From NCBI GenBank assembly GCA_021785355.1, contig JAJYFR010000004.1, positions 7,184-71,183 of the forward strand: a stretch of 64,000 nt of DNA, read 5' to 3'. The notes beneath the pieces are model-generated. The model was not told the DNA's origin, did no database searches, and saw only the letters and a program-made list of their open reading frames with translations. Of the stretch, positions 3,804 to 59,336 are shown in pieces (the first letter of the stretch is position 1; every line of letters begins with the position of its first letter). The stretch comes from a bacterium. GTDB taxonomy: Bacteria; Patescibacteriota; Dojkabacteria; JAKAPS01; JAJZLI01. Made by a program: the position numbers and the translations under genes.

Positions 3804-4503
3804 TTATATAATTGTATACATTTTCATAAATAGTTTGATTAGAATAGAATAAAGATAGATCCTCCTCTCTAAACAAACCTTTTTCTATCACATTAAACAT
3901 TTTAAAAACATTACTTTCTTCTTGTAAATTATAAAAAAAACTAGAAGCTCCTTCAAAGTTAAAAAAATCCCTTATCTTATTAAGAATAACTATATCTTTT
4001 ATATATTTAAATCCTGAAAGACCTTTATATCTATCCAGGTACAAGAAATTCTCATCTTTTGTAATATTAGGAATATATGATATATCTAAAAAATTATCTT
4101 TAGACAAATTTGCATCTGTTTCTATAGAAATAGGAATATTTTGTGTATTATATATATTTTTACTTAGAATAAGCTTCTCTCCTTCTTCAGAAAGAAATAG
4201 GTCTAAAAAATCTTTATCAAAAAATTCATAGAGAAAAGAATAGTTATAACTTTCTTTATTTTCTCTTAACACAATATCTTCTATTGCACCGTATAGATAA
4301 TCATATAAAGGTTCATTTATATCATCAAAAGATAAAATGAAGTCTTCTTTTTTTAAAGAAAATAGAGAATTAAAAGAATCTATATCGCCAAAAGCTTTTA
4401 TAAACTCTGAAAAAAGATAAAAGTTATATCCAAAATTTTTGTTATAGAAATCTCTTAATATCATCTCTAGGATCCTAATGATTTTCTTGCATTTCCAGTC
4501 CAT
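3796..4503 (-). CDS. Hypothetical protein (235 aa), operonic between the VirB6-like gene and the giant membrane protein gene
   Basis: Complete ORF. Its stop overlaps the start of the downstream giant ORF by 8 nt and its start overlaps the upstream gene by 37 nt. Acidic, Phe/Tyr-rich, no recognisable motif. Confidence 0.45.
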   Translation of the reverse strand: MDWKCKKIIRILEMILRDFYNKNFGYNFYLFSEFIKAFGDIDSFNSLFSLKKEDFILSFDDINEPLYDYLYGAIEDIVLRENKESYNYSFLYEFFDKDFLDLFLSEEGEKLILSKNIYNTQNIPISIETDANLSKDNFLDISYIPNITKDENFLYLDRYKGLSGFKYIKDIVILNKIRDFFNFEGASSFFYNLQEESNVFKMFNVIEKGLFREEDLSLFYSNQTIYENVYNYING

Positions 4504-6020
4504 TTTCTTAAACTCGAATATGGCTGAGCAAAACCTCTCTTTAGTTCTGTTGCATAAGAAGAGAAATCATAACCCAATGCCTTAGTAGCATCTGCAATTA
4601 TCTTTGGTATCATTACAAAAAGTGCTATTGATATCAAAAGTCCTATTGTGTTTCCTTGTTGGGAACTAAAAATTGAGCCTAAACCTAATAAAGGAAGTGT
4701 ATTTCCATTAGAAAGCCCCGTAATTGAATTTTGAAGATAATATATAAGGTTAAACATTGTATATGTCACGACATAAATAAGTATAGCTTTTGACATACCT
4801 TTAAAAAAACTCCAAGTAGCTTTACTTTGTCCAGGAACAGAACCTAGAAGAAACATGAAAGGTGCAGCTATTGGTAGAAAAAGAAAAATAAGATATCCTT
4901 TTAAAAGTTGTATTATTATTTTAAACACAGTAAATAAAAGTATAACTGCAACTATAAAAACTATAATGCTGTCAGCTGCACCACCATTATGAATAATTCC
5001 TCCTATAGCTGAAAAAATATAGTGTACCCCCCCTGTTCCATCTGGCAAATTATTTATAACAGAACCTGTCCCTTGTAAAGCAGTCTTCATGTTATTTCCT
5101 GTAACTGCCCCATAAACACTAAAAATATAACTTCTAGAGGAAAATGCAGTTGGAAAATTAAAACTACCCGTGTTAAGAGATGTAAATATAGAATAGATTA
5201 ACCCTAGTAATATATTCATCAAATCTATCATAAAACCTCCTATAGCATAACTAAAAGTTATAAGAACAATAGCGGCCATTATATTAGGGAGTGCACTCAT
5301 AAATGTTATAGGAACCTGTCCTCCTACTTTCCCTCCTACAATTATCATTATTCCTGTAAAAAGAATTATAAGTATTAGAAGTAAATAAGATATGTTTCTA
5401 GATACTGTCCAAATATTATAAACAGGTGATAGAAAAGAAAACCCATAAACTGGACCTGACAGTTGAGATGCTGCATAAGTAGAACTTGTTAAACCTGATC
5501 TTTTATATAAATAAGCAAAATACCCAACTCCACTTTCAGGTTGAGTTGTATACATTGAACTTACTAAAGAATTCGCTTCACCAAAGGCCCCATAACCTCC
5601 TGTATAGTTGTATCCTGTAGTACTAGAACTACTAGCTTGTGTATAGTTTCCTAAGATAGCTATAGCACCCGATTGAAATAGTGAAGGAGTAAATCCACAT
5701 GACTCCCAAACTGAAAGTCCTGATCCATTAACAGGTGCACATTGATTTAGGGTCGTTTGCTGAGAACTAGTAGTTGTTTGCGCAAACATTTGTCCTGCAA
5801 AAAGAACTCCTAAGATTACTAAAAAAATAGGAATACTTTTAATATTAATAGAACTTTTTTGTCTTAGATTAGAATGTGTGCTATTTTCTAATATTTCTAC
5901 AGCTTCTGTTTTATATAAAGAAAGTTTTTTAGATATTATTTTTGATTTTAGTAAAAATATAGAAAATTTAAGCTTTTTCTCTTTTAAAATATTCTTATAG
6001 TATTTGTTTATTTTATTCAT
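4467..6020 (-). CDS. VirB6/TrbL-like polytopic membrane protein with N-terminal signal/anchor
   Basis: 517 aa with an N-terminal hydrophobic segment ending ...FAGQMFAQ. A Cys-containing Ser/Thr-rich ectodomain (CAPVNGSG...CGFTPSLFQSGAIAILGNYTQ) is followed by at least six TM helices. It shares the motif FTPxL...AIAxxxYTQ and overall architecture with ORF 54938..55876, which sits beside VirB4-like ATPases. Confidence 0.4.
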   Translation of the reverse strand: MNKINKYYKNILKEKKLKFSIFLLKSKIISKKLSLYKTEAVEILENSTHSNLRQKSSINIKSIPIFLVILGVLFAGQMFAQTTTSSQQTTLNQCAPVNGSGLSVWESCGFTPSLFQSGAIAILGNYTQASSSSTTGYNYTGGYGAFGEANSLVSSMYTTQPESGVGYFAYLYKRSGLTSSTYAASQLSGPVYGFSFLSPVYNIWTVSRNISYLLLILIILFTGIMIIVGGKVGGQVPITFMSALPNIMAAIVLITFSYAIGGFMIDLMNILLGLIYSIFTSLNTGSFNFPTAFSSRSYIFSVYGAVTGNNMKTALQGTGSVINNLPDGTGGVHYIFSAIGGIIHNGGAADSIIVFIVAVILLFTVFKIIIQLLKGYLIFLFLPIAAPFMFLLGSVPGQSKATWSFFKGMSKAILIYVVTYTMFNLIYYLQNSITGLSNGNTLPLLGLGSIFSSQQGNTIGLLISIALFVMIPKIIADATKALGYDFSSYATELKRGFAQPYSSLRKWTGNARKSLGS

Positions 6021-46501: not shown

Positions 46502-48439
46502 ATGGAAGGTCAAAATAACGAGCATGCAATACCTCAAAATATAATGAGCGTGGAGTTCAAGTTAATAGGGGATCTAACGATTAAACAGTTTGTTTTTGTT
46601 GCTATACCTTTACTACTTGGATTTCTGATGTTCGTTTTTAAAGTTAATAATTATATAACTTTAGTATTCACGGGTATCTTTTTATTAGCAGCTTTATTTA
46701 TAGATTTTATTCCTCTTGATGATAGACCTCTAGATGAGTGGATAATAAATTTTATAATTGCAGTGAAAAATCCTACACAAAGAATATGGGGAAAGAAACC
46801 TTCGTACCCCAATATTTTAAGAATTCCTAAAGCTATAATGCCAAAAGTTAAGAAAAATGAGGATGTAGCTACATTTCTCTATCAATCTCCTTTAGATACA
46901 AGTATACAAAGTTCGAGTGGTAATAGTGCTACAAAAATTTTAGATGATAAAGAAAAAAATTTTATGTCAAATATAGATAATATAAATGATTCTTTAGGAG
47001 ATAATGTCTCAATAAATGCAGGAGGAAGGCCTGTTATTTCTCCTGCTTTTAATATTCCTACAAGTAATAATTTTCAAAATAATCCTACAAAAGAAGATGT
47101 ATCAAGTAATACAAATCCTACAGAGAATGTACCTTTTACAACAGGAGATAATAGTAAGAATAAAGATGATAATTTACTTTCATCTAGAATAGGCAATGAA
47201 GATCCTAAAAATTTTTATAAACCTGAAAAGCTATATACTGAAGAAAGGGAAGAAGATTCTTCTGATGTAAAGAAAACAATACCATCAGTTGATGCCTCAA
47301 GTATGAACGCCAATCCTTTTTTTTCTCAAGATAATCCTTTTGGTCTTATTAATACAGGAAACCACGTTAACCCTGTACCTCAGCAAAGTAATGAAAGTTT
47401 CTCTACTGTACCTTCCACACCTGAGATTAAAGATGAAAATCCTAATTTAGATAAGGCAGATAAAATTGAGGATACTTCTTTTAGAGAAGGAGGTGTAAAT
47501 ATATTAGATCTATCTTCTCAAATGGATAGTGTTGAGGGTATTACAATTCCATCTGTTAATGAAAGTATTTCGAATCCATATGACAATGCTACTGTGGCAA
47601 CTCCTATTGATATTACAAAAGATTCTCCACCACAAGAAGAGACAGTGGAGCCTCAAATCTCAAATGTGTCTGAGAATGACAATATAGCTCCAACCCAAAT
47701 AGATAATGCACCTGTTGATGAAAGTATTAATCCATATGACAATGCTACTGTGGCAACTCCTATTGATATTGCAAAAGATACTCCACCACAAGAAGAGATA
47801 GTTGAACCTCAAATCTCAAATGTATCTGAGAATGATAATATAGCTCAGACCCAAATAGATAATGTACCTGTTGATGAAAGTATTAATCCATATGACAATG
47901 CTACTGTGGCAACTCCTATTGATATTGCAAAAGATACCTCACCACAAGAAGAGACAGTTGAACCTCAAATCTCAAATGTTATAAATAAGAGTCCAGAGAG
48001 TAATAACGAAATGAACGAAATGTTGGAAAGGTTGAAAAAGTTAGAGGAAGAAAATTCATCCTTAAAAAAGGCATTAGAAACAACATCAAGTACTCCTTCT
48101 CCTCAAAATACTAATTCTTCAATAAATAGCAATTTTGATATAAATGATTTTAAAAAATATCTTCCTGAATTTGTAAATAACCCTAATGTTATAGCAGGAG
48201 TATTAGTAGATAGCCAAGGAAATATCATTCAAGATGCAGTTATAATAATAAAAGATTCTTCTCAAAAACCTATTAGAGCTATAAAAAGTAATCAACTTGG
48301 ACAATTTTTTATTAGAACTCCATTACCTGATGGAAATTATACACTTGAAGTTACACATCCAAAGTTTGCATTTGAAAGTACTGGGGTGGACTTGACGGGT
48401 GTGATAAAAGAACCTATATTAATATATTCTAAGACTTAA
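46502..48439 (+). CDS. Membrane-anchored surface protein with tandem 52-aa repeats and C-terminal CarboxypepD_reg-like beta-sandwich domain
   Basis: 645 aa with two N-terminal TM helices and a Ser/Asn/Pro-rich region. A 52-aa unit (NPYDNATVATPIDI[TA]KD[ST]PPQEE[TI]VEPQISNVSENDNIA.TQIDN.PVDESI) occurs 2.6 times, followed by a coiled coil (EMLERLKKLEEENSSLKKALE). The C-terminus VIAGVLVDSQGNIIQDAVIIIKDSS...GQFFIRTPLPDGNYTLEVTHPKFAF matches the carboxypeptidase-regulatory-like pattern. Confidence 0.6.
   Translation: MEGQNNEHAIPQNIMSVEFKLIGDLTIKQFVFVAIPLLLGFLMFVFKVNNYITLVFTGIFLLAALFIDFIPLDDRPLDEWIINFIIAVKNPTQRIWGKKPSYPNILRIPKAIMPKVKKNEDVATFLYQSPLDTSIQSSSGNSATKILDDKEKNFMSNIDNINDSLGDNVSINAGGRPVISPAFNIPTSNNFQNNPTKEDVSSNTNPTENVPFTTGDNSKNKDDNLLSSRIGNEDPKNFYKPEKLYTEEREEDSSDVKKTIPSVDASSMNANPFFSQDNPFGLINTGNHVNPVPQQSNESFSTVPSTPEIKDENPNLDKADKIEDTSFREGGVNILDLSSQMDSVEGITIPSVNESISNPYDNATVATPIDITKDSPPQEETVEPQISNVSENDNIAPTQIDNAPVDESINPYDNATVATPIDIAKDTPPQEEIVEPQISNVSENDNIAQTQIDNVPVDESINPYDNATVATPIDIAKDTSPQEETVEPQISNVINKSPESNNEMNEMLERLKKLEEENSSLKKALETTSSTPSPQNTNSSINSNFDINDFKKYLPEFVNNPNVIAGVLVDSQGNIIQDAVIIIKDSSQKPIRAIKSNQLGQFFIRTPLPDGNYTLEVTHPKFAFESTGVDLTGVIKEPILIYSKT
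47574..47980. repeat. Tandem direct repeat, 156-bp unit x approx 2.6 copies (approx 93% identical), coding
   Basis: Units start at 47574, 47729 and 47885 (AATCCATATGACAATGCTACTGTGGCAACTCCTATTGATATT...). Differences between copies are mostly synonymous or conservative. Confidence 0.85.
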
Positions 48440-48442
48440 AAT

Positions 48443-49111
48443 ATGCAAAAAAATACACGTATTGTAGCTACAACTCAAGATCATCTAAGTATAGAAGATA
48501 TAAAGGATAATTTTGTTGTACTTAAAAATGGAAATGTATCTGTTGTTATAGAAACTTCTGCTGTAAATTTCTATCTTCTCTCAGAGGTTGAACAGAGTTC
48601 TAAGATATATGCTTTTGCTGGGTTGCTTAACTCTTTAGGTTTTTATATACAGGTTATGATTCACACAGAAAATGTTGATATATCTGCATATCTTAAACAT
48701 ATAGATGAATATAAAGTAAAAGAAAAGGATCCTAAAATTAAATATCAGATAGATATATATAGAAAATTTGTAAAAGACCTTATTGTTAAGAATAATGTTT
48801 TAGATAAACATTTTTATATAGTTATACCTTATATGACTCAAATGCCTAAAAAACCTGGTTTTATAGATAAATTTATGAAAAAAGATTCAGCACCATCTTT
48901 TGATGTAGATCAATTAATACTTCAAGCTTCATCGAGACTTTTGCCAAGGAGAGATCATGTAATAAGGCAACTTTCAAGGATGGGATTAAAATCAAAGCAG
49001 TTAGATAGTTCAGATTTGATAAAACTTTTTTATAATATCTATAATCCTGCAAATTCTAAAATAAGAAGAAATTTCGATGAATATACTTCTCCAATAGTTA
49101 GTTCTCAATAA
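48443..49111 (+). CDS. Hypothetical protein paired with VirB4-like ATPase (possible split-off VirB4 N-terminal domain)
   Basis: 222 aa ending 2 nt before the ATPase gene. The N-terminal region (DHLSIEDIKDNFVVLKNGNVSVVIE...LLNSLGFYIQVMIH) is similar to ORF 56152..56670 (DILGIEEDLIILKNSVYSKIFEI...FLISLKIDIQFIAI), which likewise precedes the second VirB4-like gene. Confidence 0.45.
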   Translation: MQKNTRIVATTQDHLSIEDIKDNFVVLKNGNVSVVIETSAVNFYLLSEVEQSSKIYAFAGLLNSLGFYIQVMIHTENVDISAYLKHIDEYKVKEKDPKIKYQIDIYRKFVKDLIVKNNVLDKHFYIVIPYMTQMPKKPGFIDKFMKKDSAPSFDVDQLILQASSRLLPRRDHVIRQLSRMGLKSKQLDSSDLIKLFYNIYNPANSKIRRNFDEYTSPIVSSQ

Positions 49112-49113
49112 TA

Positions 49114-51126
49114 ATGAAAATACCACAAATACTTATAAAAAAAGAAGAGAAAACAAATGAAGTACAACAGCCTATACAGGAAGTTTCTCCTAATAGTAAT
49201 ATAGATCCTACTTCTTTGTTTGGAATGGGCATGAATAGTATTAAGGATATAATAGCACCTTCTTCTCTAGAGGTGGATTTTTCTTATGTTAAGATAGGAG
49301 ATAAATATTATAAAACATATTTTGTATTAGCTTATCCTAGGTATGTTGTTCCTAATTGGCTTTCTCCATTAATAACATTTGAACATTCTATTGATATAAG
49401 TATGTTCTATTATCCTATTAGTGCAGCAGCAGTACTTTCTCAATTAAGAAAGAAAATTGCGGAAATGGAAGCAAGTACAAATAATTTGATTGAATCTGGA
49501 AAAGTAATGGATCCTAATTTAAAAGTTGCGCTTTCAGATGCAAAAGAATTACAAGAAAACTTAGCAAAGGGTTCAGAGAGATATTTTCATTTTGCCTTAT
49601 ATGTCACAGTTAGAGCAGATACAGAGGAAGAATTATCTGATATATCAAAGAATCTTGAATCTACTATGGGGGCAATGTCTTTAATAATCAAACCTACTAC
49701 TCTCCAGATGGAGGAAGGTTTTCTTTCAACATTACCAACTTCTAGCGATAACCTATATTATACTCATAATATGGATACAACTTCTATTGCGACTACATTT
49801 CCTTTTGTATCCTCGGAGTTAACTTCAGATAACGGTGTTTTATATGGGATAAATAAAGCAAATAAGAGTCTTGTTGTATTTGATAGATTTGAATTAGAAA
49901 ATGCAAATTCTGTAATTTTTGCAAAATCTGGAGCAGGAAAAAGTTACTTAGTAAAATTAGAAGCTCTTCGTTCATTAATGTTAGGAACACAAATAATAAT
50001 AATAGATCCAGAGAGTGAATATTTTACTTTATGTAAAGCTTTAAATGGGGCTTATGTTACATTTTCTCAAGATGGTAATTCAAAGATAAATCCATTTGAT
50101 CTTTCTGGTATTTATGAAGAGGGGGAGGATGAATTAAGGTTTAAAATACTTTCTTTACACGGATTGTTTAAGGTTATGTTAGGGGATGAAGGTGGTATTA
50201 GTAGTATGGAAAATGCAATTTTAGATAAGGCTTTAATTTTAACATATAGAGATAAAGGGATAACTTTTGATCCAGAAACTCAAGTGAAAGCGCCTCCTTT
50301 AATGGAAGATTTATATAAAATATTACTTTCTATGGAAGAGGCTGAAGCTCATTCTCTTGCTCAAAGATTAGAAAAATATGTAAAAGGGTCTGCTTCTGGA
50401 ATTTTTGATCAACAAACTAATATAGATCTAAATAATAATTTCATGGTCTTTTCCATAAAAGATTTATCAGATGAATTAAGACCTGTAGCTATGTTTTTAA
50501 TGTTAGATTTCATATGGACAAGAGTAAAAAGAGATTTAAGAAAAAGAATTTTTATAATAGATGAAGCTTGGATGTTAATGAAATATCCTGACTCTGCACA
50601 ATTTGTATATGCTGTAGCAAAGAGAGCTAGAAAATATTATCTAGGGCTTACTACAGTGTCTCAAGATGTTGATGATTTTATCTCAAATGAATATGGTAAA
50701 GCTGTTGTAACAAATTCTTCAATTCAAATTCTTTTAAGGCAGTCTCCTACGGCAATAGATCATTTATCTGAAGTATTTTATCTTTCTGCTGGAGAAAAAA
50801 ATCTTCTTTTGAGTGCAGATGTTGGGGAAGGAATCTTTTTTGTTGGAACAAATCATGTTGCAATACAGATACTTTCAAGTGAGTATGAAAATAGACTTAT
50901 AACAACAAATCCTGAAGAAATTTTAAAAATGCAGCAAGATGCATCTTCTTTAGGAAGGATAGTTCCTAATAATTTTGTAAATTCAAATTTTGATAGTAAC
51001 GATAATACTAAATTATTTCAAAGTGATATGATAAATATGAATAAGGAAGAGACAGGAGAAGTTTCTAAAGATGAAGAAGATTCAACCTTATCTCAAAATT
51101 CTAGTACAGAAGGAATAGTTAATTAA
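49114..51126 (+). CDS. VirB4/TraC/TrbE-family conjugation/T4SS ATPase (FtsK-HerA superfamily), copy 1
   Basis: Walker A VIFAKSGAGKSYLVK, downstream IIIDPESEY motif, Walker B RKRIFIIDEAWMLM, and later VSQDVDDF; 670 aa; N-terminal region YYKTYFVLAYPRYV shared with copy 2 (YFKTYYVAEYPSEV). Confidence 0.7.
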   Translation: MKIPQILIKKEEKTNEVQQPIQEVSPNSNIDPTSLFGMGMNSIKDIIAPSSLEVDFSYVKIGDKYYKTYFVLAYPRYVVPNWLSPLITFEHSIDISMFYYPISAAAVLSQLRKKIAEMEASTNNLIESGKVMDPNLKVALSDAKELQENLAKGSERYFHFALYVTVRADTEEELSDISKNLESTMGAMSLIIKPTTLQMEEGFLSTLPTSSDNLYYTHNMDTTSIATTFPFVSSELTSDNGVLYGINKANKSLVVFDRFELENANSVIFAKSGAGKSYLVKLEALRSLMLGTQIIIIDPESEYFTLCKALNGAYVTFSQDGNSKINPFDLSGIYEEGEDELRFKILSLHGLFKVMLGDEGGISSMENAILDKALILTYRDKGITFDPETQVKAPPLMEDLYKILLSMEEAEAHSLAQRLEKYVKGSASGIFDQQTNIDLNNNFMVFSIKDLSDELRPVAMFLMLDFIWTRVKRDLRKRIFIIDEAWMLMKYPDSAQFVYAVAKRARKYYLGLTTVSQDVDDFISNEYGKAVVTNSSIQILLRQSPTAIDHLSEVFYLSAGEKNLLLSADVGEGIFFVGTNHVAIQILSSEYENRLITTNPEEILKMQQDASSLGRIVPNNFVNSNFDSNDNTKLFQSDMINMNKEETGEVSKDEEDSTLSQNSSTEGIVN

Positions 51127-51256
51127 AAATAAAAAATCCATCAAGATGCAATCACTTATAGGCCTTCTTTTATTAATATTAAATTTCAATATATATGTAA
51201 TTTATATATAGAAATATAGCCTTAAATTGATATTTTTCCACGTATAATATGGCGTA

Positions 51257-51285
51257 TTGACAAAAATTATAGGCCATAATATAAT
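51257..51285 (+). promoter_or_regulatory. Consensus sigma70-type promoter internal to the T4SS-like locus
   Basis: TTGACA(51257-51262), exactly 17 nt, TATAAT(51280-51285); 35 nt upstream of ORF 51320. Confidence 0.45.
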
Positions 51286-51319
51286 CTGGTTTATATAAAT
51301 ATATTTTAGATTATAAATA

Positions 51320-51625
51320 ATGAATACTAAAAATTTAGATAATTATATAGACCAATTAGTAGTAGATAAAGGTTTTGATTTAGGTAATGTTGATTTAGTA
51401 AAAAGGGTTAAAGATGAGTTATATGATCTTGTAGAAGATGCTATAAACTCAGAGATAGTAAATAAATTATCTCAAGATAAAATATCTGAATTTGAAAAGT
51501 TATTTAATAACAATGTTTCTGACGAAGTTGTGGTATCTTTTCTCAAATCAAATATAGAAAATTTAGATCAAGTAATAGAATCAGTTTTATTAAATTTTAG
51601 AAATATATATTTAGATAATAATTAA
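51320..51625 (+). CDS. Small acidic hypothetical protein (101 aa)
   Basis: Complete ORF downstream of a consensus promoter, 2 nt before the 996-aa ORF. Confidence 0.45.
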   Translation: MNTKNLDNYIDQLVVDKGFDLGNVDLVKRVKDELYDLVEDAINSEIVNKLSQDKISEFEKLFNNNVSDEVVVSFLKSNIENLDQVIESVLLNFRNIYLDNN

Positions 51626-51627
51626 TT

Positions 51628-54618
51628 ATGGATATAAAAACAGAGGAACAGCAATCTTTAATAGTACAAGAAGTAGAGGACAGTATAAAAGATTTTGAAG
51701 TTATATTATCAGCAGAAGAAATTATTAATGAATATTTATATAAATTATCTTTAGGAGAAGAAGAAGATAGAGGTGATGAAAATAAGGTCTCTGTAGATGA
51801 AGGTTTAAATGAAACTGATACAACAAAAGATTTGCTTATTAAGAGGGATGAAAATAAAAATCCAAAAGTTTTGAATGAAGATGATCTTCTAAATATACAT
51901 ATTGTTGATATTAGTGATCAAACAAAAAGAAGAGCACATGACAATGCAAGAGAACAATTAACTGAAGAAAAAAATAAATTAACAGGAGTTGGTGGCATAG
52001 CAAAAAAATTAGGTAGATATGGATACTTTGAAGGTACAACTTATCAAAGATATAAAAAACAAGCACTTATAGAAGAATTATTAAAAGATACAGATGGTAA
52101 GACAGCAGAAAGATTTGAAGCAGGAAGCATTAGAACAGAGAGAAATACAGAGATAAGTGTTAAAGCTGCAGAAAGTGAAGAAGAAAAAACTTTGAAAGAA
52201 TTAATAATTAGTATGGCTAAAGGTGAAATTGAAGAAAGTGAATATATTGAATTAAAAAGGAAATTAATATCTGAATTATTTATTTCATCTTCTTTGAAAG
52301 AAAGTAAGAATACTGATTTTGAAAAATTTGAAGATAATATAGATAAATATATAGACCAAATTAAAGTATTAATAGATCATGGTAAAACAGTTGAAGATAT
52401 AAGAGATTTAATAACCTTAAACCTAGGTATAGCAAAAGATTTATCAATTACAAGAGTTGAATATAGTAAAACTGATAAAGTTTTAGAAGGTTTAAAAAGG
52501 CACAAAATTGCAGGGAAATTAGTTAATGAAACTGTTTTTGCAACAGGTGGATCTGTTTTAGGCAGAGTAGCTTTTAGCATAGCTTCTTCTAGAGCTGCAA
52601 CAATTGCTAGTTTTGGAGGAGCTGCTGTTGTAAGTTCTCTACTTTCAGCAGCTAAAGAAAAGCAAAGAATAAAAAGAGATAGGCAAATGCAGATTAGAGA
52701 TTATTCCGCAGGAAGATCAAATGGATTAGAAGGTAAAAGAAGAGAACAACTTCAGAGAACTGTATATGATTTAATGCCTATAAAAGATTCTTTTAATGAC
52801 CTTGTAGAATCATTTGATAAATTTAATAAAAGTATAGAGGGAGATAAGATTTCTTTTGAAAAGATGTTAAAAATAATTGGAGAGTATAGAGCAAGAAGGA
52901 TTGTATCTTTAGCTAGTGATATAGATCTATTTATATATTCTTCTTCAGAGAATATGCAAGAAGAGTTTAGTGACCTAGACTGGTATGTAAGATATGTTCA
53001 ATCTAAAATGCAAATATCAGAAAATCAAGATAAAATAAAATCAATATTGGGTGTTGATGATATTGATATAGAAGGTTTAATAGGGGAACAAATCGAAGAA
53101 TCTGTTAAAAATATTGAAGAAGATATTTCTCAAAAAGATTCAATATTTAGAGGTGTAAAATCTGCAAGAATAGGTAGATATGTAGCTTGGAATCTAGTAA
53201 CAGGACTTACAATAGGAGCTTTAGGACAAGGTGTAGTAAGAGAATTAATGGAGAAGCATGAAGAATTATTGAAAAATGGTGTTATAAAACAAGATTTTCT
53301 AGAAGGTCTTTTGAATAAATGGAATCAAGTAAAAATAAAGAAAACTACTTATATGCATAGTCCTAAAATAGCACTTAGATCAAAAGGTCGTGTTGGGGAA
53401 ATTTTTATGAATGGTAAAAAAATCCAAGAGGTTAAATTAAATAAAAATGGAAGCCTTACTTCAAGTTCAATTCAAACTTTACAACAAAAAGGAATAGGAG
53501 TTAAAACTAGTACCGTTTATACAAGTTCTGGGGGAGAAGTTATGCGTAATAATAGTATAGTTGCTGGCAATACAAATGTTCAAAGAAATCTTTGGTATGA
53601 CAATAATAATGCGCAAGGAGTATATACTAAGAATGAATTAGGTATATGGTGGGGTTCTAATACTGGATATAATAGTAAAGGAGATGTAGTTTTCAATATT
53701 GCTAGTATGACAAACAAAGGTTCATATCAAGGAAATTCTTCTGTGGCAATACAAAATCTTATTGAAGAAGGAAAAATGAAAATCTGGATTACTGCTAGTA
53801 GATCTACTCAAAATAAAGCATATGTATTTAATGTGAATAGAAATGGTTTAGTAAATATAGATAAAAATTCTTTAGCATATAGATTATTCTCAAAAAGTAG
53901 TACAGGTCATGTTAAATTCAATGGTGCATTTGTTGAAGCTGTAGTTCCTCAAGCAACAACAAAACTAGGAACTCATATAGGAGATCCAGTTGCAACTTAT
54001 GTAGGTTCAAATACAGCTAATCCTATTATAAATAAAGAGACAATTACTACACTTTTTGAAAAGCCTACAAGATATATTAAACCAAAAACTCAAATAGGAT
54101 GGCCTTGGTTTATACCTGTTGTAGGAAGAACTCCTTTAGAAAAAGCAGAAATTAATTCTAATCAAGAAAATTCAGAAATACCTGGAAACTCATTGGCAAA
54201 ATCAAGAGAAGTAAACGATTTTAATCTTATAGGTGATATTGGAAGTATTAATAGTAGTACAGATGAAGATATAAGAGGACTTTTTAATGAACTTTATATT
54301 AATGACAAAGAAGAAAGTAAAGTTTCTAGAGTAACAAAAAGAGAGCAAGCTAGGTATGCTATATCAATGATTAAAGATTATTTTAAAGTTATGTCAGCAG
54401 AAGAAATAAAATTATTAAATGAATATTTAAAGAAACGTAAAATGAATAAAGATAAGTATGAGAATGAAAGAAAAGATCTATTTTCTGAGAATTTTCTACT
54501 TCAAGAATATGATACTTTTAAATCTAGATTTGAAAATGATGAGGCTTTCAGATTGGATGTTTTAAGAAAATGGGCAGAAGTGCATCTCTACTATATTAAT
54601 AATAAAGGTTCTATATAA
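51628..54618 (+). CDS. Large hypothetical membrane-associated protein (996 aa) of the T4SS-like locus
   Basis: Acidic coiled-coil-rich N-terminus; hydrophobic Gly/Ala/Ser-rich segments around residues 300-340 (GGSVLGRVAFSIASSRAATIASFGGAAVVSSLLSAA) and about 530 (VAWNLVTGLTIGALGQGVV); Asn/Gly/Ser/Thr-rich C-terminal approx 450 aa suggestive of an extracytoplasmic beta-rich domain. No ATPase or peptidase motif. Confidence 0.55.
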   Translation: MDIKTEEQQSLIVQEVEDSIKDFEVILSAEEIINEYLYKLSLGEEEDRGDENKVSVDEGLNETDTTKDLLIKRDENKNPKVLNEDDLLNIHIVDISDQTKRRAHDNAREQLTEEKNKLTGVGGIAKKLGRYGYFEGTTYQRYKKQALIEELLKDTDGKTAERFEAGSIRTERNTEISVKAAESEEEKTLKELIISMAKGEIEESEYIELKRKLISELFISSSLKESKNTDFEKFEDNIDKYIDQIKVLIDHGKTVEDIRDLITLNLGIAKDLSITRVEYSKTDKVLEGLKRHKIAGKLVNETVFATGGSVLGRVAFSIASSRAATIASFGGAAVVSSLLSAAKEKQRIKRDRQMQIRDYSAGRSNGLEGKRREQLQRTVYDLMPIKDSFNDLVESFDKFNKSIEGDKISFEKMLKIIGEYRARRIVSLASDIDLFIYSSSENMQEEFSDLDWYVRYVQSKMQISENQDKIKSILGVDDIDIEGLIGEQIEESVKNIEEDISQKDSIFRGVKSARIGRYVAWNLVTGLTIGALGQGVVRELMEKHEELLKNGVIKQDFLEGLLNKWNQVKIKKTTYMHSPKIALRSKGRVGEIFMNGKKIQEVKLNKNGSLTSSSIQTLQQKGIGVKTSTVYTSSGGEVMRNNSIVAGNTNVQRNLWYDNNNAQGVYTKNELGIWWGSNTGYNSKGDVVFNIASMTNKGSYQGNSSVAIQNLIEEGKMKIWITASRSTQNKAYVFNVNRNGLVNIDKNSLAYRLFSKSSTGHVKFNGAFVEAVVPQATTKLGTHIGDPVATYVGSNTANPIINKETITTLFEKPTRYIKPKTQIGWPWFIPVVGRTPLEKAEINSNQENSEIPGNSLAKSREVNDFNLIGDIGSINSSTDEDIRGLFNELYINDKEESKVSRVTKREQARYAISMIKDYFKVMSAEEIKLLNEYLKKRKMNKDKYENERKDLFSENFLLQEYDTFKSRFENDEAFRLDVLRKWAEVHLYYINNKGSI

Positions 54619-54714
54619 AAATCTTTGTTCATTTAACAATAAAAATGTTGCTATTAATAGAAAATTTAAGGTATTTTGATTTTATTTTATAAAACTTTTA
54701 AAATACTTTAAATT

Positions 54715-54957
54715 ATGCAACAGATTCCGGGACTAAATCAATTTGTTAATAATATAGCAGGTGTAATGATAACCACAGTAGAAACAGTCCTTATATTAAT
54801 AGTAATAGCATTTGGTATCCAGTTTATAATGTACTCCGATAATCCTCAAGAAAGATCTAGATTGATTAGAAGAATAATTTGGGTTTTAGTAGGACTTTTT
54901 ATCGTTATAGGTGCTCAAAATTTTACTACATTTCTACATGCGATTATTGGCGGTTAG
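54715..54957 (+). CDS. Small 2-TM protein, VirB2/TrbC pilin-like candidate
   Basis: 80 aa with two hydrophobic helices separated by a short polar loop (…VETVLILIVIAFGIQFIMYSDNPQERSRLIRRIIWVLVGLFIVIGA…); immediately upstream of the VirB6-like gene. Confidence 0.35.
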   Translation: MQQIPGLNQFVNNIAGVMITTVETVLILIVIAFGIQFIMYSDNPQERSRLIRRIIWVLVGLFIVIGAQNFTTFLHAIIGG

Positions 54958-55876
54958 TCTAATATTAATATTTCTTTTTTCAAGACCTGTATTTGCTCAA
55001 GGTACAAATTCTAATATTCTCAATTGCAATTCATCAATTTCTTTTTCCATAGATGGAGTTATGTGTTCTTTGGGGTATATAATAGATCAATTTACAGAAT
55101 TTACTCCTAATATTTTATCTAATAATGGATATGGAGGAAGTCTTGCAGGGATAGCTTTTAATCAATATACCCAAGGCACTGAGTATATTGCGTTTGCAAT
55201 AATACCGATACTTATATATTTATATATACTTAATTTTTTAGGTGAAGTATCTTTAGGTAAAACAGGTTTATCTCCACAGGATTTAATGTATAGTATTTTT
55301 ATGTCTGTATTAATATTAATACTTTCTCCTTATATTTTATCTATGCTTATAACATTTATTAATGTATTAGATAAATTTATAATTATTCATATTATACACT
55401 CATCTAATCCTAGTTTATTTCAAACAATTATTAATTCAATGAATCTTAGTAATTTTAATTCAGGTATATTTTCAGGCATAATTAATTATATTTTATACAT
55501 TCTTCTTATTATTGTTCTGTTTTTATTTTCATTTCAATTTATATTAAGATTTATTTTACTTTGGATATTAATACTTTTCTTTCCTTTTGGAGTTGCTTTG
55601 TCTATATACCCTCCATTTGGAAATATTCTAGGATCTATTCTGTCTAAAATTATGCAATTATTATTTATTCAACCTGCTTTTTTAATAGGTATATCTATTT
55701 TTATATTAATAGTTAATAATTTCTCTATTAATGTAGTTGAGAAATTTATCATCTCAATAGTTACATTATTCTCATTAGCGTTAATCCCTAATTTACTTAC
55801 AAGATATCTTAATTTTTCTTTTTCATTTGGACAAAGAAATATAAGGAGTATATTGAAATATGGATACAAAAGATAG
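54938..55876 (+). CDS. VirB6/TrbL-like polytopic membrane protein (paralog of 4467..6020)
   Basis: Probable start at ATG 54938 giving signal peptide MRLLAVSLILIFLFSRPVFAQG (the ORF track's 54911 start is in the same frame). Cys-containing ectodomain with FTEFTPNILSNNGYGGSLAGIAFNQYTQ, then at least six TM helices. Confidence 0.45.
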   Translation: MRLLAVSLILIFLFSRPVFAQGTNSNILNCNSSISFSIDGVMCSLGYIIDQFTEFTPNILSNNGYGGSLAGIAFNQYTQGTEYIAFAIIPILIYLYILNFLGEVSLGKTGLSPQDLMYSIFMSVLILILSPYILSMLITFINVLDKFIIIHIIHSSNPSLFQTIINSMNLSNFNSGIFSGIINYILYILLIIVLFLFSFQFILRFILLWILILFFPFGVALSIYPPFGNILGSILSKIMQLLFIQPAFLIGISIFILIVNNFSINVVEKFIISIVTLFSLALIPNLLTRYLNFSFSFGQRNIRSILKYGYKR

Positions 55877-56159
55877 TTGTAAAGTTTATAAAATAAAAAA
55901 TTTACATTCAGGTTATATTAATATAACTAACAATGTTTTAATATTTCTTTTCTCTATTATACCCATACTTTTTATCATATTTAGCCCTATTATTATTCAA
56001 TTAAAAATATTTTTATCTTCTTTTATTGTTATGACATTTTATGTTTTATTTAAACAAGAATATAAAGGTAATGTTTTATATTTGTATATATATTTTTTCA
56101 TTCTTTTTATGAAGAAAAAGAAAAAGTATTATTTTGAAGAGGAAAGTATAGATGTATAA
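55860..56159 (+). CDS. Small hydrophobic hypothetical protein (99 aa)
   Basis: Two TM helices; overlaps both flanking genes (operonic). Confidence 0.35.
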   Translation: MDTKDSCKVYKIKNLHSGYINITNNVLIFLFSIIPILFIIFSPIIIQLKIFLSSFIVMTFYVLFKQEYKGNVLYLYIYFFILFMKKKKKYYFEEESIDV

Positions 56160-56670
56160 TATAAAAAATTTTTATGACATATTAGGTATAGAAGAAGATT
56201 TAATAATTTTAAAAAATTCTGTATATTCTAAGATTTTTGAAATATTTCCTGACAATTTTATACTTTCTGATATAGAAGAAAGATATTCTTTTATAAAAAA
56301 ATATGAAGAGTTTTTAATATCTTTAAAAATAGATATTCAGTTTATTGCTATAAATTTTAAATTACCTCAAAAGGAGAATTTAAAATATTTATCTAATATA
56401 AAGGATAAAAAGTTTAATATGTTATATAAAGAGGCTTTATTAAATAAGGATAATGAAGTTCTTAGAAATTTATTTAATCAGAGATTTTTTTTAATACACT
56501 CTGTAAATAAAAAAAGAAAACATCTTGATTATCAAAAAGATTTATTAGAGGTTAAAAGTGTATTTTCTTCACAAGAAAAACAATTAAGATATATGTTATC
56601 TCAAATTCCTTTATCTTTCAAAAAAATGAATAAATCGGAGATAATTAAAATTTTAAAATTTTTTAGTTAA
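56152..56670 (+). CDS. Hypothetical protein paired with VirB4-like ATPase copy 2 (homolog of 48443..49111)
   Basis: 172 aa, ends 4 nt before the ATPase gene; see the similarity noted for 48443..49111. Confidence 0.45.
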   Translation: MYNIKNFYDILGIEEDLIILKNSVYSKIFEIFPDNFILSDIEERYSFIKKYEEFLISLKIDIQFIAINFKLPQKENLKYLSNIKDKKFNMLYKEALLNKDNEVLRNLFNQRFFLIHSVNKKRKHLDYQKDLLEVKSVFSSQEKQLRYMLSQIPLSFKKMNKSEIIKILKFFS

Positions 56671-56674
56671 AGTT

Positions 56675-58306
56675 ATGAAAATTCTTTATAAAAATAAACA
56701 AGATAAGATTTTCCCTAAAAAGATTGAAGAAAAGCCTTCTTTTATAAAGGTAAATAATAAGTATTTTAAAACTTATTATGTTGCAGAGTATCCTTCTGAA
56801 GTGTACAGTTTCTTTCTTTCAGACATATTTTCATTGGGAGGTAATATAATGGTCACTCAATATTTAAAAGCTGTAAAAAAAGATCAAATACTTAATTCTA
56901 TAAAAATGAAATTATCTGCCATTGAAGCCCAAAGACATTCTCGTTTCAAAAAAGGAAAGTTAAATGATATTACTTTAGATCTAGAAGTCTCAAATCTGGA
57001 GGATTTTAGAAGAATTCTTGTTTCTTCAAAAGAAACGAGTTTATCTTTTGGTTTTTATTTAACTTTATATTCTAAAAATTTATATAGATTAAAATCTTTA
57101 TCAAAAAATTTAGAACTACTTCTTTCTTCTAAATCTTTTAATATATATTCTCTAGATTTTAGACAAGATGCTGGGTATAAAACAATATTACCTTTTAATT
57201 TAAATATATCTTCGAAATCTTTTATTTTAAATACCAAATCTGTAGCATATATGACTCCTTTTGTTCTTAGTAACTATACTGATTATAGTGGTGTTATTTA
57301 TGGGGTAAATTCACTGACAAATTCAATGTTAATTTTTGATATATTTAAATATGAAAATTATAATGGTGTTGTTTTTGCCAAATCAGGTTCTGGAAAGAGT
57401 TTTTTTGCCAAAATAAATATAATAAGGTCACTTTCTAAAGGTATAAAGGTAGTTGTAATAGATCCAGAAGGAGAATATAAGGATCTATGTAAAAATTTAA
57501 AAGGTAAATATATTGATCTTTCTCATAAATCAAAAAATCATATAAATCCTTTTGATTTATATGAAGGAGAAAGTATTGATGAAAAAATACAATTCATAAA
57601 AAGTTTTTTACGAAAGACATGTACGTATTTCGATTCAAATGAAATAGATAAAGCTTTAATTGAGATTTTTAGAGATTTTAAGAATCCTACATTTGTAGAT
57701 TTATATAATTTTTTAGAGAAAAAGAATAGTAGAATGGCTCTAGAAATATTTAATATATCAAAAGGATCAAATTCAAATCTATATTCAAATGAAAGTAATA
57801 TTAAACTTTCATCTAAAGATAATCTAATAGTATTTGATATATCTTCACTAGATAGTTATAACATATCTTTAATGATGCATGTAGTGCTTAATTTTATTTG
57901 GAAATTTCATCAAAGACAAGATAAAAGATTAGTTTTTATAGATGAAGCTCATAGATTATTTGAGAATGAGGATTTGTTAAGTTATCTTAAAATGGTATCA
58001 AAAAGAGCAAGGAAATATAACTTAGGATTGATATATATAACTCAAGATATTGAAGATTTTATATCTTCAGAAGAAGGTAGGTCAATAATAGCAAATACAT
58101 CATTGAAGGTTTTAATGAAGCAAGAAAAGGTAAATGTAGAAAAGATAGGAAAAACATTTATGCTATCTTCTGAAGAAAAGGAAGCTTTATTAAAATTTTC
58201 ATTAGGAGAATCCTTGATACTTTTTGGAGATTTAAGAGTATATAATAAAGTCTTTGCTTTTGAATTTGAGGAAAAGATTTTTAATAAAAGGCAGGAGATT
58301 CCATAG
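56675..58306 (+). CDS. VirB4/TraC/TrbE-family conjugation/T4SS ATPase, copy 2 (shorter paralog)
   Basis: Walker A VVFAKSGSGKSFFAK, VVVIDPEGEY, Walker B KRLVFIDEAHRLF, ITQDIEDF; 543 aa. Confidence 0.7.
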   Translation: MKILYKNKQDKIFPKKIEEKPSFIKVNNKYFKTYYVAEYPSEVYSFFLSDIFSLGGNIMVTQYLKAVKKDQILNSIKMKLSAIEAQRHSRFKKGKLNDITLDLEVSNLEDFRRILVSSKETSLSFGFYLTLYSKNLYRLKSLSKNLELLLSSKSFNIYSLDFRQDAGYKTILPFNLNISSKSFILNTKSVAYMTPFVLSNYTDYSGVIYGVNSLTNSMLIFDIFKYENYNGVVFAKSGSGKSFFAKINIIRSLSKGIKVVVIDPEGEYKDLCKNLKGKYIDLSHKSKNHINPFDLYEGESIDEKIQFIKSFLRKTCTYFDSNEIDKALIEIFRDFKNPTFVDLYNFLEKKNSRMALEIFNISKGSNSNLYSNESNIKLSSKDNLIVFDISSLDSYNISLMMHVVLNFIWKFHQRQDKRLVFIDEAHRLFENEDLLSYLKMVSKRARKYNLGLIYITQDIEDFISSEEGRSIIANTSLKVLMKQEKVNVEKIGKTFMLSSEEKEALLKFSLGESLILFGDLRVYNKVFAFEFEEKIFNKRQEIP

Positions 58307-59336
58307 GTTTTGCTAAAGCTACTCCAGAAGGATCATTTAATTGATTAAAACCAGATCCTGCAACTCCTGTTATTCCATATTGCCACAGTATTTGTTGTGT
58401 TTTTGGGTTAAGAACAAATATTCTATCATTATGATCATCTACTATTAAGTAATTTCCATTAGGAAGTAATTGAGTAGAAGATGGATGATTTAGGGTGTTA
58501 GCTCCTGTTGGTTGGTAAGTCCAAACAACATTACCTTGTTGAGTTATCTCTTGTACTTTTCCAGGGTATACCCAATCTGTTGATAAGATATTTCCATTAG
58601 GTAAAGGAACTGCATCGGAAGGATATAACTGAGGTATATTTATTTGCCAATTGATAACTTTTTTAGCAATATTTACATCTATTGCCATATGATTTGCTAT
58701 TGATGTTATCAATATACTGTTATTTGGTAGAGGCATAGCATCATTTGGTGCATCTAGGTATCCTGCTTGAGTACCAGGAAGACCAGTATGTCCATATTGC
58801 CAAACTACTTTACCTGCTTTATTAACAGCAATAACTCTCATATTAGCATCATCTGTAATTACAGTATTTCCGTTAGGTAGTCTAAATGAATCATCTACAT
58901 ATTTACCTAAATATCCTGTTTGTGCTCCTGGTACACCTAAGTGTCCATATTGCCAAACTATACTTTTTGTCTGAGTATTTATCTCAATAACTTTACTATA
59001 ATCTTCTTCATTAACTAATAATCTGTTAGGAGCATAGACTTGAACGTCATCAGGATCTTTTATCCCATCCATTTGCCATATAATTTGTTTTTGAGGGTTA
59101 ACTTCTATTATTCTATTATTTTTAGAATCACAAATATAAATGTCTCCTCCAAGTGGAGTTGAAGCAAGTATTGCTTGTTGCTTTGCTTTTTGAGCTTTTA
59201 TAATACTTTCTGTAGATTTTATTTTTGATATATATATATTAGCTTTATAAGATTTACTTATTATTAATCCAACGATAACAAGCATAATCAAGTATAGTAA
59301 TATAAGATATATTGTTTTTTTTGAAAATTTTTTCAT
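58281..59336 (-). CDS. Membrane-anchored NHL/YVTN-type beta-propeller repeat protein
   Basis: N-terminal TM (IYLILLYLIMLVIVGLIISK) then six or more repeats of an approx 45-aa unit (…NRIIEVNPQKQIIWQMDG…; …KVIEINTQTKSIVWQYGHLGVPGAQTGYL…; …RVIAVNKAGKVVWQYGHTGLPGTQAGYL…). Confidence 0.5.
   Translation of the reverse strand: MKKFSKKTIYLILLYLIMLVIVGLIISKSYKANIYISKIKSTESIIKAQKAKQQAILASTPLGGDIYICDSKNNRIIEVNPQKQIIWQMDGIKDPDDVQVYAPNRLLVNEEDYSKVIEINTQTKSIVWQYGHLGVPGAQTGYLGKYVDDSFRLPNGNTVITDDANMRVIAVNKAGKVVWQYGHTGLPGTQAGYLDAPNDAMPLPNNSILITSIANHMAIDVNIAKKVINWQINIPQLYPSDAVPLPNGNILSTDWVYPGKVQEITQQGNVVWTYQPTGANTLNHPSSTQLLPNGNYLIVDDHNDRIFVLNPKTQQILWQYGITGVAGSGFNQLNDPSGVALAKPMESPAFY

Follow-up and report, generated by a model that had tools for sequence, protein, structure and literature searches.

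What kind of machine is encoded by a bacterial locus that carries two VirB4-family ATPase genes on one strand, with no recognisable relaxase or coupling protein beside them? The question is raised by a 64,000-nucleotide stretch of DNA from a member of the Dojkabacteria (Patescibacteriota; GenBank assembly GCA_021785355.1, contig JAJYFR010000004.1, positions 7,184 to 71,183), referred to here as the window, in which positions 46502-58306 are filled by ten open reading frames (ORFs; g1-g10), all on the plus strand. A first-pass annotation made from the sequence alone described this region as a type IV secretion system (T4SS)-like locus and proposed it as a candidate for an undescribed envelope-spanning apparatus. 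That proposal does not stand, as a system with the same gene set, the same lack of a relaxase and the same proximity to the chromosomal origin (oriC) has already been published (PMC10633639, PMC12102498, PMC12857230). We consider it likely that the locus is a chromosomal, relaxase-free T4SS of the Patescibacteria type, derived from monoderm conjugation machinery of the MPF-FATA class and thus an apparatus already described. What is new here is a second module in tandem with the first, not a new kind of apparatus. No report of such a module in Patescibacteria was found in the literature searched, and its closest analogue is the duplication of virB4 and virB6 in Rickettsiales.

Two VirB4 modules in tandem

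The two ATPases are indeed paralogous VirB4 proteins, with the coordinates and motifs first attributed to them: g3 (VirB4-1) and g10 (VirB4-2) share 32% identity over ~560 residues (E 1e-94). VirB4-1 scores 398 bits against the NCBIfam entry "VirB4-like conjugal transfer ATPase, CD1110 family" (cut-off 325), matches Pfam P-loop_TraG with an E of 6e-28, and carries the motifs FAKSGAGKSY, IIDPESEY and IIDEAW. VirB4-2 reaches 268 bits against the same CD1110 family, which is below the cut-off, and 4.6e-24 against P-loop_TraG, and its corresponding motifs are FAKSGSGKSF, VIDPEGEY and FIDEAH. Both match the VirB4 C-terminal domain of PDB entry 4AG5 (E 1e-50 for VirB4-1 and 4e-32 for VirB4-2). Two other candidates were rejected. 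For a HerA/FtsK-type translocase, DUF87 matched with E 1e-8 to 1e-10 as against 1e-24 to 1e-28 for P-loop_TraG, a difference of ~15-20 orders of magnitude, with CD1110 scores of 268-398 bits and TrsD partners present. For archaeal Ced/Ted DNA import, the scores were 34.7 bits for CedB (cut-off 700) and 51 bits for CedD (cut-off 600).

Each ATPase gene is preceded, 2-4 nt upstream, by a small ORF, and the suggestion that these ORFs (g2, TrsD1; g9, TrsD2) are mutually homologous, split-off VirB4 N-terminal domains proved sound. TrsD1 matches the profile of a fused mycoplasma VirB4 (NCBIfam VirB4_plasma) over positions 101-233 (E 2.2e-9) and TrsD/TraD with an E of 5e-7. TrsD2 matches VirB4_plasma weakly over positions 103-273 (E 0.003), its family aligns with a 27-sequence Patescibacteria TrsD profile over 169 columns (hhalign, 97.6%, E 3.2e-12), and its ortholog in the related genome L008 has a weak match to the TraC-like PF26593. 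Between g2 and g9 themselves the BLASTP match is marginal (E 0.004), and a profile-profile comparison of the two ortholog families gives a probability of 94% and an E of 1.4e-7. Against the staphylococcal TrsD profile, TrsD1 has a weak match (E 0.0012, probability 19%) and TrsD2 is unmatched (E 0.08); a solved homolog was not found, the TrsD profile being unmatched among PDB sequences. On the fused mycoplasma profile, the products of module B map in colinear fashion, with g8 weakly on positions 20-99 (E 0.014), g9 on 103-273 and g10 from 294 onwards, and those of module A do likewise, with g2 on 101-233 and g3 on 280-893. Because g8, g9 and g10 lie colinear on one fused VirB4 profile, the reading of a split VirB4 is well founded, the match of g8 alone being weak. 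Among the Patescibacteria loci fetched, 75 likewise have a TrsD homolog (tblastn alignment of at least 180 aa, E at most 1e-8) ahead of virB4; wherever coordinates are listed, no more than a few hundred bases separate its end from the start of the ATPase gene.

Module A (g1-g3) is the universally conserved set of the Patescibacteria T4SS. Its first gene, g1, had been listed as a separate repeat-bearing surface protein and is in fact a PrgI/VirB3-like anchor fused to repeats and a CarboxypepD_reg domain (Table 1). The PrgI score is 24.3 bits, below the Pfam cut-off of 27, and CarboxypepD_reg reaches 34.3 bits (cut-off 32.3); a Curtissbacteria ortholog with the identical fusion (L037:7212-8717) scores above the PrgI cut-off, at 39.3 bits (E 9.8e-10). 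The fusion is kept in the four related genomes L006, L007, L008 and L009. The tail carried by this anchor is ~540 residues long and consists of acidic N/S/T/P-rich repeats followed by the CarboxypepD_reg beta-sandwich. With two transmembrane (TM) helices, at 21-39 and 52-70, the N- and C-terminus of g1 lie on the same side of the membrane, and a basic stretch after the second helix hints that this may be the cytoplasmic side; the "surface-like" tail could lie either inside or outside the cell.

Module B opens with the 80-aa protein g6, and the suspicion that it is a VirB2-like pilin was confirmed by two Pfam families, with scores above the cut-offs of both TrbC/VirB2 (30.9 bits against 27.9) and T4SS_pilin (29.6 bits against 26.6). 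It also matches the NCBIfam Mbov_0395 pilin-like family (E 2e-8; 33.8 bits, below the cut-off of 40). The TM helices are at 17-35 and 50-68, and identity to the orthologs in L006-L009 is 58-89%.

The following gene product, g7, had been called a signal-peptide-bearing, polytopic VirB6/TrbL-like protein. A direct Pfam search with g7 gave zero matches, and the assignment is an indirect one, by way of distant relatives and a structural comparison. The close g7 family comprises 13 clusters, and a word-indexed homology search returned only a narrow lineage; an exhaustive profile search of 1.8 billion representatives yielded 76 relatives. When 40 of the 76 were compared with Pfam, TrbL was matched by six (best 3.5e-7), TrbL_4 by five (best 6e-8) and T4SS_pilin by four, mostly among the weaker relatives, and the ten best distant relatives gave one weak TrbL match. 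An AlphaFold2 model of g7 has a predicted local distance difference test (pLDDT) score of 60, and its top three Foldseek matches among 350,000 PDB chains are TrwI/VirB6 of R388 (probability 0.96-0.98, E 0.12-0.35, TM-score 0.38-0.48). The small membrane protein g8 lies directly upstream of TrsD2/VirB4-2 in all five genomes compared below, and two of its five orthologs match Pfam TcpE weakly (E 0.005); no similarity was seen between the g8 family profile and either the PrgI part of g1 or staphylococcal TrsC.

Table 1. Features of the locus and of the surrounding window (window coordinates unless a related genome is named).
Feature	Position	Strand	Size	Description
517-aa protein	4467..6020	-	517 aa	Polytopic membrane protein; candidate VirB6-like partner of module A, ~40 kb away
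dnaA	8437-9771			Pfam annotation; dnaN also in window
Other window genes				hrcA-grpE-dnaK; pentose-phosphate genes; rpmH-rnpA-yidC; ksgA (Pfam annotation)
Type IV pilus cluster				pilM/N, pilins, pilC, pilB (Pfam annotation)
Flanks of the locus				Upstream, galU; downstream, beta-propeller protein, sortase, dnaJ, uracil-DNA glycosylase
g1	46502..48439	+	645 aa	First gene of module A; PrgI/VirB3-like two-TM N-terminus (residues ~10-85), low-complexity region with 52-aa repeats, C-terminal CarboxypepD_reg beta-sandwich
Tandem repeat in g1	47553..47979	+	156 bp (52 aa) x 2.7 copies	Tandem Repeats Finder, 93% matches, score 736
g2 (TrsD1)	48443..49111	+	222 aa	Free-standing VirB4 N-terminal-domain homolog
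g3 (VirB4-1)	49114..51126	+	670 aa	Canonical Patescibacteria-type VirB4 ATPase
Variable island	51127-54714			DUF5663 and 996-aa protein; in relatives L006:5236-7722 and L007:6192-7882 (AbiEii toxin-antitoxin pair each), L008:3283-7609 (kelch, GNAT, HD, DUF3850); L009 empty
Promoter-like site	51257..51285	+		Sigma-70 type, TTGACA-17-TATAAT, 12/12 consensus, in 193-bp gap before g4
g4	51320..51625	+	101 aa	DUF5663, 29.1 bits (cut-off 23.7); first gene of two-gene cassette
g5	51628..54618	+	996 aa	Second gene of two-gene cassette
g6	54715..54957	+	80 aa	VirB2/TrbC-like pilin; two TM helices, basic loop; first gene of module B
g7	54938..55876	+	312 aa (321 aa from GTG at 54911)	Signal peptide, Cys-pair ectodomain, ~6 TM helices; divergent VirB6/TrbL-like candidate
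g8	55860..56159	+	99 aa	Small hairpin membrane protein at VirB3/TcpE position of module B
g9 (TrsD2)	56152..56670	+	172 aa	Divergent TrsD-like VirB4 N-domain protein
g10 (VirB4-2)	56675..58306	+	543 aa	Divergent, fast-evolving, lineage-restricted VirB4 paralog

Conservation and divergence of the second module

Is the second module a stable part of this system? Five genomic contexts were compared, namely the contig of the window and L006-L009. All five show one gene order, PrgI fusion, TrsD1, VirB4-1, a variable segment, pilin, VirB6-like protein, small TM protein, TrsD2, VirB4-2, sortase and dnaJ, and in each of them module B lies directly downstream of module A in the same orientation; it was never found without module A. 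Among the fetched virB4-containing loci, only these five have two virB4 genes within +/-10 kb. The VirB4-2 ortholog group is made up of 11 clusters (P0001-P0011) that are 47-100% identical, and the next matches fall to ~34%. The neighbourhood is thus kept in relatives, each ATPase has an N-domain partner, and the VirB4 profiles score far above HerA/DUF87; these results run counter to the observations that the first-pass annotation had named as refuting it.

The two modules differ markedly in rate. VirB4-1 is 82-86% identical among the sister genomes, where the identity of VirB4-2 is 49-69%, and in a trimmed VirB4 alignment of the same genomes the mean identity is 86% for VirB4-1 and 53% for VirB4-2, the latter evolving ~three times faster. 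TrsD1 is 67-83% identical in the sister genomes, and the partner proteins of module B are much more divergent than TrsD1 across the same set. Such rapid evolution would be expected if module B were a decaying or neofunctionalised duplicate comparable to virB4b of Rickettsia, with a structural or gating role in place of a motor or on its way to loss. The low overall GC content of g8 and g9 (17%) and the CD1110 score of VirB4-2 (268 < 325 bits) agree with this, and a precedent is available in the duplicated virB4 of reduced-genome Rickettsia, one copy of which is more divergent and GC-poor (PMC2653234). All five ORFs of module B are intact, however, in every genome examined, and GC content at third codon positions (GC3) is normal. 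Walker A, DPExEY, NPFD, Walker B DEA, KRxRKY and QD are invariant in the VirB4-2 group, and since the Walker A/B, KRxRKY and QD motifs have stayed so across 11 clusters that are 47-69% identical, purifying selection on catalysis is indicated. Furthermore, canonical Patescibacteria VirB4 have 129 alignment columns with a conservation of at least 95%, and VirB4-2 retains 64 of these, including clade-specific residues missing from outgroups such as the F-A-K before Walker A. Decay or loss of motor function thus appears quite improbable.

The origin of VirB4-2 is harder to read. In a neighbour-joining (NJ) tree, VirB4-1 is nested among 84 canonical VirB4 sequences and clusters with those of Curtissbacteria, WWE3 and Daviesbacteria; it is 56-62% identical to the nearest canonical VirB4 in Curtissbacteria/WWE3 loci (L037, L024, L046, L080, L017), with a mean of 49% to other classes. 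On this affinity the organism is probably Microgenomatia/WWE3-like. VirB4-2 is monophyletic in 100/100 bootstraps, in 94/100 branches outside the whole set of canonical Patescibacteria VirB4 as well as a Streptomyces homolog, and is equidistant (31%) from the canonical Patescibacteria sequences. Its identity to every outgroup is 20-26%, as against 25-38% for VirB4-1, and this uniformly greater distance argues for acceleration, with long-branch attraction as a possible consequence. From these sequence comparisons, VirB4-2 could be either an accelerated duplicate or an old separate lineage. A bolder version of the latter holds that module B is a minimal T4SS complete in itself, with a VirB4 from a deep branch that lies outside the Patescibacteria clade described so far, or that the locus is the first two-motor T4SS of a monoderm; we regard this as doubtful. 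If true, module B would be an unrecognised MPF sub-class kept beside the canonical system as a second, rapidly co-evolving host-contact machine or, in the alternative, part of a monoderm T4SS with two different VirB4 rings.

The Streptomyces homolog in this tree is an observation of its own. It is a genuine gene of 70% GC from Streptomyces sp. BHT-5-2 (L092; NZ_CP081497.1, 2186417-2188159), and its VirB4 product is 37.7% identical to VirB4-1. It is nearer to canonical Patescibacteria VirB4 than are the VirB4 of Firmicute plasmids (23-28%) or VirB4-2 of the window (31%), and could be relevant to the monoderm donor that has been proposed for this T4SS of Patescibacteria.

The segment between the modules is a different matter. 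The 996-aa protein g5 had been counted as a component with hydrophobic segments; no strong hydrophobic or TM segment was found in it (Kyte-Doolittle, 19-residue window, threshold 1.6), and Pfam and NCBIfam searches gave zero matches. Its AlphaFold2 model is poor (pLDDT 55, predicted TM-score 0.28). Relatives of g5 amount to five other clusters among 5.8 billion proteins, always preceded by DUF5663 and in non-T4SS contexts; in L095 and L096, for instance, the pair recurs beside glycosyltransferase, PNPase or UvrD genes, with T4SS genes not nearby. At the equivalent position of L006-L009 the cassette is absent. Because it is missing from this position in four relatives and is found elsewhere without T4SS genes, g4/g5 is unrelated to the T4SS: it is an independent cassette in a variable island and not a conserved part of the system. 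The promoter-like site ahead of g4 (Table 1) is a lead, as the total of such sites in the region is not above that of shuffled sequences; the cassette possibly has its own promoter there.

Chromosomal setting

If the locus is a T4SS, does anything in its surroundings point to conjugation? The window has a GC content of 27%, and 96% of it is coding under genetic code 11; its gene content was taken from the precomputed Pfam annotation of the source contig, which covers every called gene. By this annotation it is a core chromosomal region surrounding the replication origin, in which dnaA, dnaN, rpmH, rnpA, yidC and ksgA share the same 64 kb with the virB4 genes. That the organism is CPR (candidate phyla radiation)-like, as first supposed, is also borne out. 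None of the Pfam-annotated called genes in the window encodes a relaxase, type IV coupling protein (T4CP), VirB11, integrase or transposase, and the sole T2SSE ATPase is PilB, within the type IV pilus cluster. The statement that VirD4, relaxase, VirB11 and integrase are absent and that this is not a canonical integrative and conjugative element (ICE) therefore agrees with the annotation of the full 64 kb. The oriT-linked relaxase and T4CP set of conjugative MPF-FATA systems and ICEs (pGO1, pIP501, pCF10, CTn2) has no counterpart there, as neither a relaxase nor a T4CP is found; the tRNA and Rfam scans of the window gave zero matches, and no mobile-element context (integrase, tRNA, repeat borders) was found within it.

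These data bear on the possibility that the locus is the remnant or cargo of a conjugative element, or that module B came by horizontal transfer from the T4SS of another monoderm or of an archaeon or from a Ced-like DNA import system. VirB4-1 does score above the threshold of CD1110, a conjugal-transfer family. VirB4-2 falls outside the canonical VirB4 of Patescibacteria in the tree and has a CedD score (51 bits) slightly above that of VirB4-1, and an AbiEii toxin-antitoxin pair lies between the modules in two relatives. However, the integrase, relaxase, T4CP, tRNA and repeat border expected of such an element are all absent from the 64 kb. The flanks are housekeeping genes whose synteny (galU upstream; sortase, dnaJ, uracil-DNA glycosylase and Lon-like genes downstream) is kept in genomes down to 49% VirB4-2 identity, and module B genes have a GC3 typical of the genome; native GC3 and conserved flanking synteny together make recent acquisition or an ICE unlikely. 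The greater distance of VirB4-2 from all outgroups speaks for acceleration and not for a different origin, TrsD2 matches the profile of Patescibacteria TrsD (E 3e-12) and not that of staphylococcal TrsD (E 0.08), and the Ced scores are far under their cut-offs (51 vs 600). An ICE remnant was rejected on the missing elements, the housekeeping flanks and the native GC3, and a foreign source for module B seems very unlikely.

A further part of the system may lie at the start of the window. A hidden Markov model (HMM) built from g7 and its distant relatives matches the 517-aa protein (E 1.3e-11), the only other protein of the window to be matched, a result to be read with caution given high compositional bias; a comparison of the g7 family with this protein by hhalign did not reach significance. 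In Curtissbacteria (L037) and Daviesbacteria (L018), homologs of this protein are encoded 5-9 kb upstream of virB4, and the L037 homolog has a weak TrbC pilin match (E 0.002). It is plausible from these sequence matches that the 517-aa protein is the VirB6-like partner of module A, in which case each VirB4 would have its own set of VirB3-like, TrsD and VirB6-like proteins. The gene belongs to a minus-strand cluster at window positions 1-6020 that continues upstream (L089:1-7584) and encodes, in addition, a protein of 222-235 aa, a Gly-rich multi-TM protein of 1458 aa that is cut by the window start, a 280-aa protein and a 762-aa NlpC/P60 protein, the last encoded just beyond the window start, near the 517-aa gene. 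This cluster is probably a dispersed part of the canonical T4SS, supplying channel and cell-wall hydrolase.

Several other features of the window were recorded. The 3' end of the VirB4-2 gene (58281-58306) overlaps by 26 nt with the 3' end of a convergent gene (58281-59336) for a membrane-anchored, PQQ_2/NHL-like beta-propeller protein; this gene is missing there in L006 and L007, and L008 and L009 yielded no homolog of it. Genes for a GGDEF-domain protein (39140-39748, plus strand) and an AAA_14/DUF4143 ATPase (41055-42485, plus strand) lie between pilC and pilB, in the type IV pilus cluster or next to it. A 352-aa protein encoded on the minus strand (24462-25520) scores just under the cut-off of the HopA1 type III effector family (22.5 vs 22.7 bits, E 1.2e-4), a borderline match, and is a possible candidate for a secreted effector in a CPR genome.

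Proposed working and relation to known systems

How might such a locus work? We propose that it encodes the cytoplasmic-membrane core of a non-conjugative Patescibacteria T4SS in which VirB4 is encoded as VirB3-like anchor, TrsD and ATPase. From established T4SS biology and from Saccharibacteria genetics, each VirB4 hexamer would be docked on the membrane via its cognate VirB3-like and TrsD partners and would spend ATP on the extraction of pilin and the assembly of a short conduit through the VirB6-like channel. The function would be exchange with a host bacterium, either export of effectors or uptake of host molecules, as opposed to conjugation. Module B, which could form a complete minimal inner-membrane translocon and pilus-assembly unit, would be the fast-evolving, host-facing version that determines specificity. 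We tentatively favour two insulated paralogous complexes of this kind, the fast-evolving one facing the host, over a single composite machine.

In a composite machine, the two VirB4 proteins would assemble together, for instance in the form of an inner and an outer ring or of a hexamer of heterodimers (compare VirB4 in the R388 inner-membrane complex), and the only dedicated pilin of the whole apparatus would come from module B. The constant arrangement of the modules would suit this, as they are always adjacent and co-oriented in the five genomes, with module B never found unless module A is directly upstream; in L009, where the insert is absent, they are contiguous, and the locus contains no pilin gene that belongs to module A. 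On the other hand, each ATPase has a cognate TrsD and a small TM partner, a second VirB6-like protein elsewhere is the pattern expected of insulated paralogous complexes, and the modules are parted by a variable island with unrelated genes and, in the window, a consensus promoter-like site as well. Canonical Patescibacteria with a single VirB4 also work without module B. Co-assembly therefore strikes us as rather unlikely.

Some observations count against the two-complex reading and against the identification of the system as such. The VirB6 likeness of g7 is transitive and draws on a low-confidence model, and our confidence that g7 is a divergent protein of the VirB6 kind is moderate. For g8, the assignment to VirB3 is weak (E 0.005-0.014, no PrgI profile similarity). 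The NJ placement may mean that VirB4-2 is not a within-clade duplicate, with long-branch attraction as the likely cause of that placement. No VirB8-like or VirB1-like gene was found in the 46.5-58.3 kb locus. Finally, a T4CP or relaxase could be encoded elsewhere on the chromosome, as VirD4-like genes are far from virB4 in most Patescibacteria (PMC12102498).

The T4SS of Patescibacteria is the only T4SS known to be essential for the growth of its bearer. Two modules side by side offer a natural contrast between a slow, universal module and a fast one with its own pilin and channel, which helps to ask which parts make contact with the host and which form the conserved motor. To that end, the cognate triads of VirB3-like protein, TrsD and VirB4 are open to comparison for the specificity of their interactions.

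Among known systems, the closest are those of Patescibacteria themselves. Epibiotic growth of Southlakia epibionticum requires an unusual T4SS (SEML1_0006-0019) that resembles Gram-positive conjugation machinery; its pilins are essential, and neither a relaxase nor a coupling protein is recognisable (Wang et al., 2023; PMC10633639). The requirement for growth is also supported by PMC12857230. In a survey of 3,035 Patescibacteria genomes, VirB4 formed a monophyletic clade inside MPF-FATA. Its most frequent partner was TrsD; PrgI/VirB3, VirB6 and VirB2-like pilins were encoded near virB4, relaxases were almost always absent, and virB4 was frequently near dnaA, dnaN, rnpA, ksgA and rpmH. The survey counted 2,474 VirB4 in 2,417 of the 3,035 assemblies and did not discuss tandem duplication (Quinonero-Coronel et al., 2025; PMC12102498). 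The present locus shares the MPF-FATA-type VirB4, TrsD immediately upstream, a PrgI/VirB3-like anchor, a VirB2-like pilin and a putative VirB6-like protein, and likewise has no relaxase or T4CP nearby, lies near dnaA, dnaN, rpmH, rnpA and ksgA, and has a type IV pilus cluster in its vicinity. It differs in having two tandem VirB4 modules, the second of them ~31% identical to any VirB4, in having a single pilin and not an array, and in that the candidate VirB6-like partner of module A and the NlpC/P60 gene are ~40 kb or more away.

The MPF-FATA operon of staphylococcal plasmids of the pGO1/pSK41 type (TrsB, CagC-like; TrsC; TrsD; TrsE; TrsF; TrsG, a CHAP hydrolase) has the same order of small pilin-like protein, small TM protein, TrsD and VirB4, and VirB4 is there also split into TrsD and an ATPase. 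In contrast to the locus described here, the staphylococcal system is carried on a plasmid and mediates conjugation, has a MOBQ relaxase, a T4CP and a VirB4 that is 23-28% identical to those of the window, and encodes nothing VirB6-like in the interval from the pilin-like protein to TrsC. Among solved structures, the one nearest in sequence to both ATPases is the VirB4 C-terminal domain of Thermoanaerobacter pseudethanolicus (PDB 4AG5/4AG6), which comes from a single full-length Firmicute protein with its N-terminal domain in the same polypeptide.

The closest parallel to the second module is provided by the rvh T4SS of Rickettsiales, in which virB4, virB6, virB8 and virB9 are duplicated (Gillespie et al., 2009; PMC2653234). 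Those bacteria too are obligately host-dependent and have reduced genomes, and their T4SS is chromosomal and non-conjugative, with two VirB4 paralogs, one conserved and one faster-evolving and GC-poorer, and multiple divergent VirB6-like proteins (PMC2653234). The rvh system is, however, a diderm MPF-T apparatus with an outer-membrane core, and its virB4b is not clustered with the vir genes and is without conserved features (PMC2653234), whereas the second copy described here is part of a complete tandem module and has kept all of its ATPase motifs. Despite these differences, the parallel with the VirB4 and VirB6 duplications of Rickettsiales suggests convergent evolution in bacteria that depend obligately on a host.

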